From the sequence record KX130862: a stretch of 64,000 bases of DNA; one strand, given 5' to 3'. The DNA comes from Shigella phage SHFML-26. The translations under genes and the position numbers were made by a program. The first letter of the stretch is position 1. The number at the start of each line of letters is the position of its first letter. Of the stretch, positions 18,964 to 64,000 are shown piece by piece. Under the pieces are notes generated by a model. The model saw only the letters and a list, made by a program, of their open reading frames with translations. It was not told the DNA's origin and did not search any database.

Positions 18964-19172
18964 AACCATGTAACCTTTAAACAATATTCTTCTACATGTT
19001 GTTTACGACCTTTCCTATCAATAAAGGTATATTCAACGAATGTTCCAATATAGTCTTTATCTACATCATGTGGACTATTAATTGGGCATTTAGTACGGCA
19101 AATGCGTTCCCATTGACGAATAATTTCCACTTTGTTTTTAGGATCAAACGGATGCGGGTAATGTACTTTCAT
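18960..19172 (-). CDS. hypothetical protein
   Basis: 70-aa ORF. Confidence 0.45.
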   Translation of the reverse strand: MKVHYPHPFDPKNKVEIIRQWERICRTKCPINSPHDVDKDYIGTFVEYTFIDRKGRKQHVEEYCLKVTWL

Positions 19173-19623
19173 AATCCACCACTATTAAATCAATATCAGG
19201 AGTAAACATGTCGATTAATTTAGAAACCTTATCCCAATCGCCGCCAGCAATACCGCAACCTATGCGTGGAATGTAAATTACTGGTTTAAACAAAAGGGTT
19301 TCTGCCTGTAGATTTAATTCTATCATGCAGTTTACTAAAGCACCATAATCAAGATTAGGACCCGGTTCGTATTGTGTATACAGGTTATAGCATATACCAA
19401 ATCCCGTAGGACTATGTTTAAAAACAATAGACATATCGCCTAATTTATCACGAGAACCGTACTCGGTAGTGGTTTTATCTATTTCTAAAATTTTGGGATA
19501 GGCTCTTGCTAATTGACCTGCTACGCCAGAGCCCATTGTGTGGAAGCAATTGCACCCGTGCGCAATAATATTACCTTGAAGAAATAGGGCGACAATATCG
19601 CCCTTGATATATTTTACAATCAT
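19144..19623 (-). CDS. macrodomain protein (ADP-ribose binding/processing)
   Basis: Gly-rich loops MGSGVAGQLARAYP and IGCGIAGGDWDKV typical of macro domains; 159 aa. Confidence 0.65.
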   Translation of the reverse strand: MIVKYIKGDIVALFLQGNIIAHGCNCFHTMGSGVAGQLARAYPKILEIDKTTTEYGSRDKLGDMSIVFKHSPTGFGICYNLYTQYEPGPNLDYGALVNCMIELNLQAETLLFKPVIYIPRIGCGIAGGDWDKVSKLIDMFTPDIDLIVVDYESTLPASV

Positions 19624-19961
19624 CTAGTACTCAATCCTCGATTATAAGAATCTACTAAACGGTCAACCATTGAATGACAAGCGGCTTTATCTTTCTCCTC
19701 CGCAACTGAACATTCTAAGGTATTCCACTTTTTAGCATATCGTTTTAACAATGTATCATTTTTGTATCTGCTTGATTTATCTCTTTCTCCGTCTTTATAT
19801 GCATATATTAATTTCTGCGCAAATTCAGCTTGGCATGCTTTATTTTTCCCGCAATAATCCGCTGCAGTACGGTTTACATACTCTCTAATTTCAGTATATG
19901 ATGTATCTGCTAACGCAGAAAATGAAATTAATCCTATACATAAAACCAAAATTTTAGTCAT
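19620..19961 (-). CDS. secreted/periplasmic hypothetical protein
   Basis: N-terminal signal peptide MTKILVLCIGLISFSALA. Confidence 0.5.
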   Translation of the reverse strand: MTKILVLCIGLISFSALADTSYTEIREYVNRTAADYCGKNKACQAEFAQKLIYAYKDGERDKSSRYKNDTLLKRYAKKWNTLECSVAEEKDKAACHSMVDRLVDSYNRGLSTR

Positions 19962-20328
19962 TTACTATTTCCAAAAGTTTATTATTTTTAAGGTAATTAG
20001 CCTTTTCTAGGACTTCAGAAGCATATTTAGAACCTGCTTTAACATTCCATCCCGAATTATAAGAGGATATTGCTTTTCTTATATCGCCCTTATGTATATT
20101 TAACCAATAAGAAAGTTCAATGTACGCCCAGGAAGCTGAATTGGACCGTTTATTCAACATTCTTTTTATTTCAGCATCGGTCATATTATAACCAAGTTCC
20201 TTGACTCTCGCTCGCATAGTAGGCAAATAATTTTGGAACATTCCATAGGCATGATGCTTTGGTTTAGATTTTAAATTAACTCCGGCAGAGCTTTCTTGCC
20301 ACAAAATAGCAGCCATTATATGACCCAA
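19954..20328 (-). CDS. lytic transglycosylase (SLT) domain protein, possibly 3' part of a frame-shifted gene
   Basis: WQESS catalytic motif, GMFQ, SYNSGWN; frame open upstream across the overlap with 20316-20498. Confidence 0.6.
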   Translation of the reverse strand: MGHIMAAILWQESSAGVNLKSKPKHHAYGMFQNYLPTMRARVKELGYNMTDAEIKRMLNKRSNSASWAYIELSYWLNIHKGDIRKAISSYNSGWNVKAGSKYASEVLEKANYLKNNKLLEIVND

Positions 20329-20498
20329 TCCGCTCTTATGGATGTTTTTGTGTGTTTTATATTTTCCATCCTTAGAAAATTGTTCCCGAATTGATACGCG
20401 TAACGCATGTTATCGAGTTGGACATTACTGAAAGTATGCTCGGAGCTATGTGCCATCATTGAAATGGCCAATAGACCAGCGAGTAGTGCTTTTCTCAT
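20316..20498 (-). CDS. signal-peptide ORF, possibly 5' part of the SLT gene
   Basis: MRKALLAGLLAISMMAHS signal peptide; overlaps SLT ORF in another frame. Confidence 0.4.
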   Translation of the reverse strand: MRKALLAGLLAISMMAHSSEHTFSNVQLDNMRYAYQFGNNFLRMENIKHTKTSIRADWVI

Positions 20499-20505
20499 GC
20501 TTACC

Positions 20506-20967
20506 TCATTGAGTTTTAATTACTGCTTTAGAAGCCTTTCCTGGTAAACGACGACTGTTGATAATTGCCATCCTGCATTGAAGTGACGGGTTTTTGAACT
20601 TCTCATTAGGCTTACAAACCGTAAATCCAAGCCAAAGATTTCCATCTGTGATTTCTAAACGTCCAGGACGATATTCAACCCCATCAATAAAATCCTCGTC
20701 AATGTCAGGACGCGGAGGCATACTCAGGAATTCATTAACTTCTAAAACATGGTCTTTTATTTTATGGAATAATTCAAAAACATATGTCTCATCAATCTCC
20801 CGTTGAATTGCACGATCAAGAAGATGTTGAGAATATTTTAGATGAAACGATGAGACTCCTGCTGCTTTTGATGCCTCACGAATCTCATTGTTAATTTGAC
20901 GAAACTCCGACTCAAAATGACGACGAAGCTTATTTCGACGGATAAAAACTTCTGTATTGATAGTCAT
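20506..20967 (-). CDS. regB: RegB site-specific endoribonuclease
   Basis: 153 aa; T4 RegB size and position. Confidence 0.75.
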   Translation of the reverse strand: MTINTEVFIRRNKLRRHFESEFRQINNEIREASKAAGVSSFHLKYSQHLLDRAIQREIDETYVFELFHKIKDHVLEVNEFLSMPPRPDIDEDFIDGVEYRPGRLEITDGNLWLGFTVCKPNEKFKNPSLQCRMAIINSRRLPGKASKAVIKTQ

Positions 20968-20989
20968 GTTGTTCTCCTCTTAACTGATA

Positions 20990-21045
20990 GAAAAATTATA
21001 CCACAGTCAAGAGGAAAAGTAAACAGTTATTCTTTAAATCTAATC
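20990..21045 (-). promoter_or_regulatory. T4 early-type promoter
   Basis: Minus strand GTTTACTTTTCCTCTTGACTGTGGTATAAT. Confidence 0.5.
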
Positions 21046-21305
21046 AATTTATTCATAGACTTTGAAACTTCTGCACGAACCTCATGTAGATTTTTGAGCT
21101 GTTCAAGACGCTGCGTATAGTAAGCAATTTCATCTTCTTCGAGACAGTCCTGTGAATCTTCTTTAAGATAACGTGCATAGTCCTGGAAAGCGTTACGGAC
21201 TACTTCCTGGAAATCATCAAGACTTTGAATTTTCTTAGGAGCAACAGATACACGACGAGGGGCAGTATAATACTCATAACCAAACCCTGCGCTTAATTGA
21301 GCCAT
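21027..21305 (-). CDS. hypothetical protein (vs.3 position)
   Basis: Start at [10 protein letters not shown]. Confidence 0.45.
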
Positions 21306-21571
21306 TAGTATTTTTCCTCTGGTTGGAACACTGCACGACAAGCCCACATACTGGATTCTTTGAGTTTCGTTTTAGCAATAGTTAACTGATCGAGGCTTTC
21401 GGCGTAATTCTTCGCGAGTTCATCATCTTCACAGCTATCAAATGCTTCCCAAAATTCATCGTATAAAGCATCAAAGATAAGTCCTAAACGAACTTCAGCG
21501 TCTTTAATAGCATTTACTTTACCGATTTTTTCGTCGGTATGTGGCTTATAACCTTTAATATCTTCAATCAT
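21305..21571 (-). CDS. hypothetical small protein at the T4 vs.4 position; candidate Acb2-like cyclic-oligonucleotide sponge (by synteny only)
   Basis: About 88 aa from MIEDIKGYK; second gene upstream of regB. Confidence 0.45.
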
Positions 21572-21785
21572 ATTTGACTTCCTCACCAGTACATAAATCG
21601 TATTCAACTAAACGAATAGGTTCATGAATGCCATATCCCTGAACAGAAATTTCTGTAGTAGGATAAATTCCATTAATATCACCCATGTTCCATGCTTCGT
21701 TAAATTGCTGTTCGCCTGAATTACTAAACCATTCGGCGAAAGCATTTAGCACATCTTCAGAACCTTCAATAATTATCTTTGCCAT
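21564..21785 (-). CDS. hypothetical small acidic protein
   Basis: 73-aa ORF. Confidence 0.45.
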   Translation of the reverse strand: MAKIIIEGSEDVLNAFAEWFSNSGEQQFNEAWNMGDINGIYPTTEISVQGYGIHEPIRLVEYDLCTGEEVKYD

Positions 21786-22484: not shown

Positions 22485-23068
22485 TGCATTCCGATTACGA
22501 AAAACTGCGGACGAGTAATACCACCAATGCAACATTTACTATTACAGCAGTGTTGCACAGTTTCAATATGAATATCGTAAATTTTATCCATATCAGGAGA
22601 TTTAACAGGCTCATCGATTATATACAAAATTCGCGAAAGAGATAAACCTCTGAACTTGCTTCCTTTATTACCGATAAAACTACGGACAGAATCAGTAAAT
22701 AAGCGGAATCGAATATCATCACTAGAATAACGAGAAAATTCTTTTTTAATGTGGCCTGCAGAAATTTTAGCGTAAGCTGAAGTATTAGAAAGAACAATAA
22801 CTGTTCCACCGTCATACAGCCAATTAGCAGCAAAGTTAGTCACAGCAGTTGATTTACCAGATTGGCGTCCACCATCTAGTCGAAGTGTACAATATTGTTT
22901 AAGCAAGTCTTCAAATGGTGGGGTATAATCGTTTTTACAAATTTCTTCTACTCTAGCATCAGAATGGTGTGTAAAAGCATTCATCAGGGATAGATAAGGA
23001 CCAGTTAAAAATGTTCTCATTTTATTCTCTCTAAATTTGGGCCATTCCATGGCACATGAATTGTCCAT
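22481..23068 (-). CDS. P-loop NTPase-like protein
   Basis: GGRQSGKST Walker A-like motif. Confidence 0.5.
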   Translation of the reverse strand: MDNSCAMEWPKFRENKMRTFLTGPYLSLMNAFTHHSDARVEEICKNDYTPPFEDLLKQYCTLRLDGGRQSGKSTAVTNFAANWLYDGGTVIVLSNTSAYAKISAGHIKKEFSRYSSDDIRFRLFTDSVRSFIGNKGSKFRGLSLSRILYIIDEPVKSPDMDKIYDIHIETVQHCCNSKCCIGGITRPQFFVIGMQ

Positions 23069-23173
23069 TTCTGTATTTACCTATTACCGCACTTGGGCTC
23101 GACCTTATTACAGGTTGGCGGGAATCCCTCATAGAATCATGAGGTCCAGCTTGTTCCCATATTTCTTATTTGC

Positions 23174-25119: not shown

Positions 25120-25589
25120 TCAGTGATAAAGTTATTTAAATTTTGAGTATATTTCTTTTCATCAAAAATCTTTTGTTGTCTGCGTAGCCGCCATGGCATT
25201 TCAATGAACATACGCCATATTCCTGATAATACTGCTGCTGTAAAAATATTAACAAGTATAGTTAAAAGAACCCAATCTCCTATTCTGTCCATTGGATTTT
25301 TTATAAAAAAGTAAAATACGAACGATGATATAGGAAGACTAATGATATACCACAGAAGAACCTTCTTATCTGTGAACCAATCAGCATTCGTTAACTTAGC
25401 GCGACCGTTTTGAATACATACGAACTTATCATCTGTTACAGTAAATGGCTTAGCTGCTTGATATCCCATTCTAAACTCCCTAATCAACAAATTTTTCATA
25501 TCTTCGGAACAACCATTCCAGTCAACTCTATCAACTGAAATGCCATCATCCCCATCATCTAAATCATACCAGCGAGTTTTTAAAATCAT
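25101..25589 (-). CDS. membrane protein
   Basis: Central hydrophobic helices. Confidence 0.5.
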   Translation of the reverse strand: MILKTRWYDLDDGDDGISVDRVDWNGCSEDMKNLLIREFRMGYQAAKPFTVTDDKFVCIQNGRAKLTNADWFTDKKVLLWYIISLPISSFVFYFFIKNPMDRIGDWVLLTILVNIFTAAVLSGIWRMFIEMPWRLRRQQKIFDEKKYTQNLNNFITECRKLK

Positions 25590-25665
25590 TTAATTTTCCT
25601 ACAATCACTCACAAACTCTTCCATTGATTCTTTTTCAATATAAGACATGTAGCTATTATATTCCT

Positions 25666-25947
25666 TTAATTGTATTTTGTAATCTTTTTTCTTTGCCAAT
25701 TTATTTTAAAATTATCATAATGAAAATATAATATGGTACCAAAGAATGAAAACAATGAAATAATTTTAGTATAGCGAAGTTCACTCCAAACTTCTATTAT
25801 ATTTACTGTGCCGTCAATGTTTAAAATAAGACAGTCAATTAACAATCCAAAAAGACTACCCGCAAGAGCTGCAGCCAACGCCACAGCAAAAATTAAAAAT
25901 GACTCAGGAAGCGAATATTTGACTTTATTTAGTTTTGGCTTTTGCAT
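25666..25947 (-). CDS. small membrane protein
   Basis: Two hydrophobic segments. Confidence 0.5.
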   Translation of the reverse strand: MQKPKLNKVKYSLPESFLIFAVALAAALAGSLFGLLIDCLILNIDGTVNIIEVWSELRYTKIISLFSFFGTILYFHYDNFKINWQRKKITKYN

Positions 25948-45177: not shown

Positions 45178-45201
45178 GGGAGCCCATGGGCTCCCTTTTT
45201 T
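45178..45201 (+). terminator. rho-independent terminator
   Basis: Perfect palindrome GGGAGCCCATGGGCTCCC followed by TTTTTT after gene 8 stop. Confidence 0.7.
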
Positions 45202-61584: not shown

Positions 61585-61823
61585 TGGAAGGTTTAATTGA
61601 AGCTATTAAATCAAACGACCTCGTAGCCGCTCGTAAATTATTTGCTGAAGCCATGGCTGCAAGAACGATTGATTTAATTAAAGAAGAAAAAATCGCTATC
61701 GCTCGTAATTTCTTAATCGAAGGTGAAGAACCTGATGATGAGGATGACGAAGATAGTGATGATAAAGACGACAAAAAAGACAAAGACTCTGATGAAGATG
61801 ACGAAGACGAGGATGATGAATAA
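61584..61823 (+). CDS. 67: prohead core protein gp67 with acidic C-terminal tract
   Basis: 79 aa; C-terminal D/E-rich run. Confidence 0.85.
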
Positions 61824-62248
61824 TGCTTCTGATCCCTGAAACTCATGAATTAGTTCTCGAGAATGTCGAAGCACTTATTCCTGAAGCACAGGGTCGCTTT
61901 GACGAATTGTCTTCTGCTTTAAATAAAGACGATATAAATACAATTGTCGAGAATATGCTTGATGATGAAACTGATTTAGCGGTTGCATTAGCTTCTATTA
62001 ATGAAAATATGCCGTTAAATGAATTCATCGTTAAACATGTTTCTGCCCGTGGTGAAATTACTCGCACTAAAGATCGCAAAACGCGTGAACGTAATGCATT
62101 TCAAACCACTGGGCTGTCTAAAGCAAAACGTAGACAAATTGCTCGTAAAGCTACCAAAACGAAGATTGCCAATCCAGCAGGTCAATCTCGTGCTCAGCGT
62201 AAGCGTAAAAAAGCTCTTAAACGCCGTAAAGCATTAGGATTAAGCTAA
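61823..62248 (+). CDS. 68: prohead core protein gp68
   Basis: 141 aa. Confidence 0.85.
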
Positions 62249-62886
62249 TGAATGAACCCCAATTACTAATTGAAACTTGGGGTCAACCTGGCGAAATTAT
62301 TGATGGCGTACCAATGCTTGAATCTCATGATGGAAAAGACTTAGGTTTAAAACCGGGTTTATACATCGAAGGAATATTCATGCAAGCGGAAGTCGTCAAT
62401 AGAAATAAACGTCTTTATCCAAAACGTATATTAGAAAAAGCGGTAAAAGACTATATTAATGAGCAAGTTTTAACTAAACAAGCTCTCGGAGAATTAAATC
62501 ATCCTCCACGCGCTAATGTTGACCCGATGCAAGCCGCTATCATTATAGAAGATATGTGGTGGAAAGGAAATGACGTATACGGACGAGCTCGTGTTATTGA
62601 AGGTGACCATGGTCCTGGAGATAAATTAGCAGCTAATATTCGTGCCGGATGGATTCCAGGAGTTTCTTCTCGTGGATTAGGTTCATTGACTGACACAAAT
62701 AAAGGTTATCGTATCGTAAACGAAGGATTCAAATTAACTGTAGGTGTTGATGCAGTATGGGGTCCAAGTGCTCCAGATGCATGGGTAACTCCTAAGGAAA
62801 TTACCGAATCACAGACGGCGGAAGCCGATACAAGTGCCGATGACGCCTATATGGCTCTCGCAGAGGCCATGAAAAAAGCGTTATAA
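62248..62886 (+). CDS. 21: prohead core scaffold protease gp21
   Basis: 212 aa. Confidence 0.9.
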   Translation: MNEPQLLIETWGQPGEIIDGVPMLESHDGKDLGLKPGLYIEGIFMQAEVVNRNKRLYPKRILEKAVKDYINEQVLTKQALGELNHPPRANVDPMQAAIIIEDMWWKGNDVYGRARVIEGDHGPGDKLAANIRAGWIPGVSSRGLGSLTDTNKGYRIVNEGFKLTVGVDAVWGPSAPDAWVTPKEITESQTAEADTSADDAYMALAEAMKKAL

Positions 62887-63744: not shown

Positions 63745-64000
63745 ATGACTATCAAAACTAAAGCTGAACTTTTGAACAAATGGAAGCCATTACTGGAAGG
63801 TGAAGGTTTACCGGAAATTGCTAATAGCAAACAAGCGATTATCGCTAAAATCTTTGAAAACCAGGAAAAAGATTTCCAGACAGACTACCGGAATAATAAA
63901 GAACGAAAAAATTAGCTCAGGCATTCGGTTCTTTCTTAACAGAAGCTGAAATCGGTGGTGACCACGGTTACAATGCTACTAACATCGCTGCTGGTCAGAC
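63745..64000 (+). CDS. 23: major capsid protein gp23, N-terminal propeptide region (partial; reading frame disrupted near 63883-63915 in this sequence)
   Basis: MTIKTKAELLNKWKPLLEGEGLPEIANSKQAIIAKIFENQEKDFQT then in-frame TAG at 63913-63915; conserved AQAFGSFLTEAEIGGDHGYNATNIAAGQT continues in another frame. Confidence 0.8.

Follow-up and report, generated by a model that had tools for sequence, protein, structure and literature searches.

The family-1 lytic transglycosylases (GH23) closest to the protein discussed here include Slt70, MltC and MltE of E. coli, Slt, MltF and MltD of P. aeruginosa, and EtgA. Phage SLT domains have been described in T7 gp16, phiKZ gp144 and phi6 P5, which are virion or endolysin proteins. 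The known muralytic enzymes of T4, gp5 and gpe, are GH24 lysozymes that are unrelated in sequence to the T4 protein Vs.1.

The gene for Vs.1 (T4p112, NP_049725; PHROG 600) is annotated in T4 (NC_000866) as one CDS of 546 nt, 61726-62271, between vs and regB. Its similarity to SLT proteins was already published in 2006, citing earlier PSI-BLAST results (PMC1524935). In the literature surveyed for vs.1 function, the similarity is mentioned only by that 2006 comparative-genomics paper. A literature search pairing vs.1 with regB yielded nothing relevant.

Vs.1 differs from the GH23 enzymes listed above in several respects. Its mature form is predicted to be a stand-alone domain of 160 residues, lacking any superhelical, LysM or lipoprotein module. 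Sequence identity to these enzymes is only 13-19% and the Pfam score barely exceeds the threshold. Its transglycosylase activity is a prediction. Vs.1 also departs from the phage SLT domains found in virion or endolysin proteins, in that it has its own predicted Sec signal. Moreover, its gene neighbours are vs, regB and tk, not virion structural genes. To our knowledge, Vs.1 has not been described as a virion component.

Here we describe the copy of this gene found in a 64,000-nt stretch of Shigella phage SHFML-26 (record KX130862), referred to below as the window. Both the gene and its conservation had been described before, as had its predicted SLT character. The break found in this copy is a private one-base deletion of an ordinary kind.

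The vs.1 locus and its broken frame

Positions 19954-20498 of the window, on the minus strand, are the orthologue of T4 vs.1, as seen from alignment with the genes of phages Isf-Pm2 and WilhelmHis, from the T4 annotation and from a tblastn match that is split between two frames. The gene is frameshifted and measures 545 nt, against 546 nt in its relatives. A megablast search with 19400-21100 matched 671 phage records, nearly all from Tequatrovirus (T4-like), the best of them 99.2% identical. The features annotated under these matches are the valyl-tRNA synthetase modifier (vs) and the RegB endoribonuclease, with vs.1 in between. In the window, vs occupies 19620-19961 (113 aa) and regB 20506-20967 (153 aa), both on the minus strand, and an ORF encoding a macro-domain protein (19144-19623, same strand) flanks the vs.1 region. 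As in T4, tk.4, vs and regB flank vs.1, and all genes of the tk-vs-regB cluster are on the minus strand. The order vs, vs.1, regB is the same in T4, Isf-Pm2, WilhelmHis and OMNI12, which is the position characteristic of the Vs.1 group. The Shine-Dalgarno sequence of vs.1, GAGG (20504-20507, minus strand), overlaps the TGA stop codon of regB (20506-20508), and the end of vs.1 shares 8 nt, ATGACTAA (19954-19961, minus strand), with the start of vs.

When the missing base is restored, the product is a 181-aa protein. PHROG 600, annotated "unknown function", matches this repaired translation over residues 1-178 (E 5.6e-69), a similarity that likewise assigns it to the Vs.1 group. In T4 and in every close relative examined, vs.1 is intact, as one ORF of 546 nt and 181 codons. 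It is also annotated as a single 546-nt CDS in Isf-Pm2 (as "putative transglycosylase"), WilhelmHis and OMNI12.

The lesion affects codons Gly38-Glu39, where all relatives have a run of four G residues (gene positions 112-115) and the window has only three (20385-20387, minus strand; CCC on the plus strand). As a result, the wild-type TTC GGG GAA CAA (F-G-E-Q) reads TTC GGG AAC AA. A three-way alignment with the two closest relatives, Isf-Pm2 and WilhelmHis, contains 546 columns, with one gap in the window and two substitutions. Both substitutions are synonymous (GGC/GGT and TCC/TCA); non-synonymous changes are absent on either side of the frameshift. An earlier note, made from the letters of the window, had proposed that a 1-nt indel, real or artefactual, breaks a single secreted transglycosylase gene, and had suggested an inspection of 20310-20410; the missing G indeed falls within that interval.

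The same note had described two overlapping ORFs in different frames, both of which are present on the minus strand. The first, ORF1 (20316-20498), encodes 60 aa, i.e. 38 native Vs.1 residues and 22 out-of-frame ones, followed by TAA. Its N-terminal sequence is MRKALLAGLLAISMMAHSSE..., beginning with the putative signal peptide MRKALLAGLLAISMMAHS, and a Pfam search with the 60 residues gave no match. The second frame is open from 20409 to 19954. From 20384 downwards it specifies native residues 39-181, which comprise the SLT/GH23 core and what remains of the conserved N-terminal region. Within this frame, ORF2 (19954-20328, minus strand; 124 aa from a TTG) contains the motifs WQESS, GMFQ and SYNSGWN. 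By three-frame translation, 94 nt (20316-20409) are free of stop codons in the two frames; the overlap is real but longer than the 85 nt or so first estimated. The SLT frame had also been said to lack an ATG start. This is true in part: an in-frame ATG, that of Met62, exists at 20314-20316, but no Shine-Dalgarno sequence was found at normal spacing before it. This ATG overlaps the stop codon of ORF1 (TAA, 20316-20318) in the sequence TAATG (20314-20318, minus strand), a possible point of termination and reinitiation.

When intact Vs.1 (181 aa) from T4 or OMNI12 is compared with the window by tblastn, residues 1-43 match in one frame and residues 39-181 in the adjacent frame (99.3% identity), so that the observation does not depend on chance statistics. 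Both this split and the homologue alignments agree with the proposal of a single broken gene, whose product would be secreted to judge by its N-terminal sequence. Loss of a single G accounts for both the 60-aa ORF and an SLT frame devoid of a proper start. Members of the Vs.1 group have an uninterrupted frame of about 171-188 codons. The window copy lacks one G at codons 38-39 and its frame breaks after codon 38, an arrangement that no other record shares; it is therefore a disrupted copy of a family member rather than an intact member. As written, the allele is null for the exported Vs.1 enzyme. A ribosome starting at the normal vs.1 start would produce a 60-aa peptide (38 native and 22 missense residues) and halt at the TAA. 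The catalytic core would be left without a signal peptide and without a proper start.

A single-gene architecture prevails among the homologues. A tblastn search with the repaired 181-aa protein detected homologues in 2012 phage records, and 40 rows sampled across this ranking are all single in-frame pieces. The repaired translation is 100% identical to the Vs.1 proteins of three phages, PBM-1, P8 and Pu-Krd-SF5. In a search of a collection of 5.8 billion proteins, 77 clusters were found, all of 171-188 aa apart from one of 119 aa. The latter, P0072, starts at the equivalent of Met62 and was considered as a candidate for an independent SLT-only gene. It was rejected, since its source (ENA ERZ28565458 scaffold_178, 1311-1860), in which vs.1 appears as overlapping ORFs of 76 and 119 aa, carries ten N's at that point, i.e. 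an assembly gap. Homologues organized as two separate genes, which would contradict the single-gene proposal, were looked for: the two-frame arrangement occurs neither among the homologues examined by residue or by annotated CDS nor in the 40 sampled tblastn rows. Alignment of 28 homologues (40-99% identity), all of 171-188 aa, reveals nine invariant residues, Q27, N30, G38, E69, G86, F88, Q89, Y147 and N148; the codon for G38 lies in the G run itself. The invariant residues of the N-terminal region indicate that this region has been kept in the same frame as the catalytic core. We conclude with great confidence that the locus is one broken gene, not two genes.

The predicted Vs.1 protein

Codons 1-18 (20445-20498, minus strand) would encode a Sec-type signal peptide, MRKALLAGLLAISMMAHS. 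It has a basic n-region (MRK), a hydrophobic core of 13 residues (mean Kyte-Doolittle 2.27) and A-H-S at positions -3 to -1, while a lipobox Cys is absent from the Vs.1 N-terminus. The same architecture is seen in the 28 homologues, each of which has a basic residue and a hydrophobic stretch at its N-terminus. The Sec signal expected of the Vs.1 group is thus predicted for this product too, by sequence features only.

Assignment of the remainder to the SLT proteins, made in the earlier note on the basis of motifs, is supported by Pfam, by an invariant catalytic Glu and by the predicted fold. The Pfam SLT profile (PF01464) scores 23.4 bits with the repaired protein and 24.5 bits with ORF2, a small margin over the gathering cut-off of 21.3. 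The predicted catalytic residue, Glu69 of the WQESS motif, is specified by the GAA codon at 20293-20295 (minus strand) and is invariant in the 28 homologues, of which at least 90% also retain the adjacent S70. A PDB sequence search with Vs.1 gave no meaningful match, which made a fold comparison necessary. The AlphaFold2 model built from the 28-sequence alignment has a mean pLDDT of 88 and a pTM of 0.83. Residues 1-20 are disordered or of low pLDDT in the model; confident helices span residues 25-38 and 59-70 and continue beyond. Helix 59-70 ends at E69, so that the E-S motif sits at the end of the helix, and the predicted fold is alpha-helical and goose-lysozyme-like. By modelled fold and motifs, the repaired product is a member of the SLT/GH23 family.

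Taken together, these features suggest how intact Vs.1 may work. The 181-aa protein would carry a cleavable Sec signal (residues 1-18), followed by a conserved N-terminal helix (25-38) that probably packs onto the GH23/SLT lysozyme-like core, with Glu69 of WQESS as the putative single acid/base catalyst. Once exported to the periplasm as a small, soluble protein, Vs.1 would act on peptidoglycan like other family-1 lytic transglycosylases, by cleaving the MurNAc-GlcNAc bond. Cleavage by enzymes of this type is non-hydrolytic and leaves 1,6-anhydroMurNAc. We infer both the export and the enzymatic activity.

The tblastn homologues come from Straboviridae and also from myoviruses of the Vi1/Cba120 and FelixO1 types. 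Vs.1-like proteins with 30-32% identity over nearly their full length include Cba120 orf114 and proteins of Mooltan, Magnus, KhF3, VpaE1 and MM7. Their presence in Vi1/Cba120- and FelixO1-type phages indicates that a predicted exported SLT-like protein has spread well beyond the T4 family: T4-, Vi1- and FelixO1-type myoviruses all keep a small protein of this kind, with a predicted Sec signal.

Origin of the missing base

The deletion is private to this sequence among the public collections searched. When the 61 nt around it were compared with phage records, about 500 matches were obtained at 95-99% identity (Tequatrovirus), none at 100%, and all 20 records listed for this query span 62 nt. 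A 31-mer carrying the deletion had no match in IMG/VR, where the wild-type 32-mer is present in four contigs, and a deletion 22-mer had none in GTDB genomes. A metagenome match to the 22-mer covers only 23 nt of an unrelated contig and was dismissed as due to chance. A search of 153 billion gene positions gave no record of the 60-aa, 120-aa or 124-aa product. Since the missing G is not shared by other public sequences, it reflects a sequencing error of the usual sort or a knock-out confined to this phage rather than a novel arrangement of genes.

The quality of the whole window bears on this choice. It was scanned for frame breaks with the ORFs of OMNI12 and T4, and a single-frame match was obtained for 78 ORFs of T4 and for nearly all those of OMNI12. 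The otherwise clean ORFs outside the gene 23 cluster described below mean that a general homopolymer-error problem is not evident. In addition, net frame-changing length differences were sought against every covering genome of a panel consisting of OMNI12, T4, BEU50, DCP2 and SH-1. Only four sites were found: vs.1 (-1, relative to all five genomes), e.3 (-1), the T-run of the gp8-gp9 terminator (+1) and a cluster in gene 23 (+5).

Gene 23 encodes the essential major capsid protein. In the window it starts at 63745 (plus strand) and, relative to every relative examined, contains five single-A insertions within 31 nt (63884, 63887, 63896, 63903 and 63914), which shift the frame and end it after codon 56; further downstream the native frame is regained. 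The insertions occur in none of the phage records: a segment of 401 nt in the window corresponds to 396 nt in every one of the best matches (T6, PST, slur07 and others). Such insertions are impossible in a viable phage, hence the sequence contains uncorrected errors. The gene 23 insertions are almost certainly one of them, and this stretch shows that the record needs quality control.

The e.3 orthologue (25586-25947, minus strand) has a 1-nt deletion at 25684 (C versus CC), which yields ORFs of 93 and 37 aa; the gene is intact in T4 and OMNI12 (120 aa). An independent isolate, Citrobacter phage PhiZZ6, has an e.3 of the same length, with the same 37-aa and 93-aa ORFs annotated. The split is common to both phages and is therefore probably a real variant. 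The fourth site, at 45196, lies in the gp8-gp9 intergenic intrinsic terminator (GGGAGCCCATGGGCTCCC followed by a T-run), which has T6 in the window and T5 in the four panel genomes that cover it.

On balance, a sequence or assembly error is the more likely cause of the vs.1 deletion, by a modest degree of belief. It is favoured by the homopolymer site, by the uniqueness of the deletion, by the lack of accompanying decay and by the proven error elsewhere in the same sequence. It must be noted that the clustered A insertions of gene 23 differ in kind from a single homopolymer deletion, which speaks against an artefact. The four panel events are too few for a firm call and only tilt the odds towards error.

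The other explanation that deserves serious weight, although it is the less probable one, is that the deletion is genuine. It would be a recent private loss-of-function frameshift, due to replication slippage in the run of four G residues and tolerated because vs.1 is dispensable in culture. Slippage in G runs is a common mechanism, and a frequent route to spontaneous frameshifts. Outside gene 23 the ORFs of the window are intact, which points to generally good base-calling. The shared e.3 variant shows that frameshift alleles occur in this lineage, and the private T6 at 45196 that private length variation exists outside genes too. In T4, vs.1 received transposon insertions at 46 of its 52 TA sites (saturation 0.885) and was classed as non-essential (bioRxiv 10.1101/2025.11.20.689424, supplement); a phage with a genuine null allele would therefore be viable. 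When T4 vs.1 was knocked down by CRISPRi-ART, the result was a weak "Semi-Fit" (score 0.81, KS p 0.099; PMC11879866, supplement). The phenotype is thus mild at most, but it hints at a mild cost that would weigh against a genuine loss. Other observations argue in the same direction. None of the public collections searched contains the allele, and it shows no sign of decay, both other differences being synonymous. Vs.1 is strongly conserved, with 446 phage records at least 99% identical to the repaired protein and homologues in three phage families. Finally, the errors in gene 23 of the same sequence are indisputable. If the deletion were real, this phage would provide a ready natural vs.1 null for studying the role of Vs.1.

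The window differs from T4 in other ways, which are typical of T-even mosaicism. The T4 ORFs I-TevII, 49.2, 49.3, tk.1, ipIII, e.7 and ipI have no match in the window, the match is only weak for mobC and ipII, and vs.8 has a different N-terminus (around 23026-23132).

Improbable recoding or reinitiation, and annotation

A third explanation assumes that the split is functional. Programmed -1 recoding by the ribosome, slippage of RNA polymerase or reinitiation at UAA-AUG would be at work, reinitiation giving a leaderless 120-aa SLT core alongside an exported 60-aa peptide. We regard this as very unlikely. A -1 shift would restore the frame, 94 nt are open in both frames, the UAAUG overlap is present and the local RNA fold is somewhat better than that of shuffled sequences (z -2.8). 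However, a slippery heptamer of the form X XXY YYZ is absent from the ORF1 frame (gene positions 1-183), no homopolymer run longer than 5 nt is found that could support transcriptional slippage, and an Rfam search at the locus gave no match. With a z of only -2.8 in addition, programmed frameshifting and transcriptional slippage were rejected. Reinitiation fares no better. Met62 lacks a Shine-Dalgarno sequence at normal spacing, and TAATG arises simply because the wild-type ATA ATG is read in a frame shifted by one base. The 120-aa product would lose, besides the signal peptide, helix 25-38, which is modelled with confidence and belongs to the fold. The two-frame arrangement, moreover, occurs in no homologue. 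It is just as improbable that a G was genuinely lost and the split put to use, with the G run serving as an on/off switch for the exported enzyme or with reinitiation at UAAUG. In the case of reinitiation, the leaderless cytoplasmic SLT core would gain access to the wall at lysis, by way of the holin alone, and a separate 60-aa peptide would be exported. Any functional or recoding reading, in short, has a very small chance of being correct.

The notion that the locus holds two unconnected genes, one for a small secreted peptide and one, with a start other than ATG, for a transglycosylase, draws on the TTG start that the ORF listing assigns to the 124-aa ORF, but it is practically excluded and was rejected on the homologue alignments, since the relatives all have one ORF, Q27, N30 and G38 are conserved in frame with the core across the 28 homologues, the final 22 residues of ORF1 are an out-of-frame translation of conserved Vs.1 codons, and the one short homologue found is an artefact of a gap in its scaffold.

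The single broken gene, for which we argue, matters little beyond annotation. The locus should be entered as a single vs.1 gene, marked as a pseudogene by a "frameshift" note or else corrected, and not as two hypothetical proteins. A nearby gene, vs.5 (21564-21785, minus strand), takes the form of an ORF of 73 aa in the window. The annotations of OMNI12, Isf-Pm2 and WilhelmHis give it 222 nt, as does the T4 gene table in the HIDEN-SEQ supplement. In the T4 reference, NC_000866, vs.5 is annotated with 58 aa, and the sequence shows a 1-nt difference at window position 21735; this record may carry a frameshift in the gene. The vs.1 gene itself is labelled "endoribonuclease" or "RegB domain-containing protein" in teqhad, teqskov, teqdroes, slur04, slur11, slur13, N2, P8 and others, and one UniRef name likewise gives it a RegB-type label. 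These labels look like annotation carry-over from the neighbouring regB.
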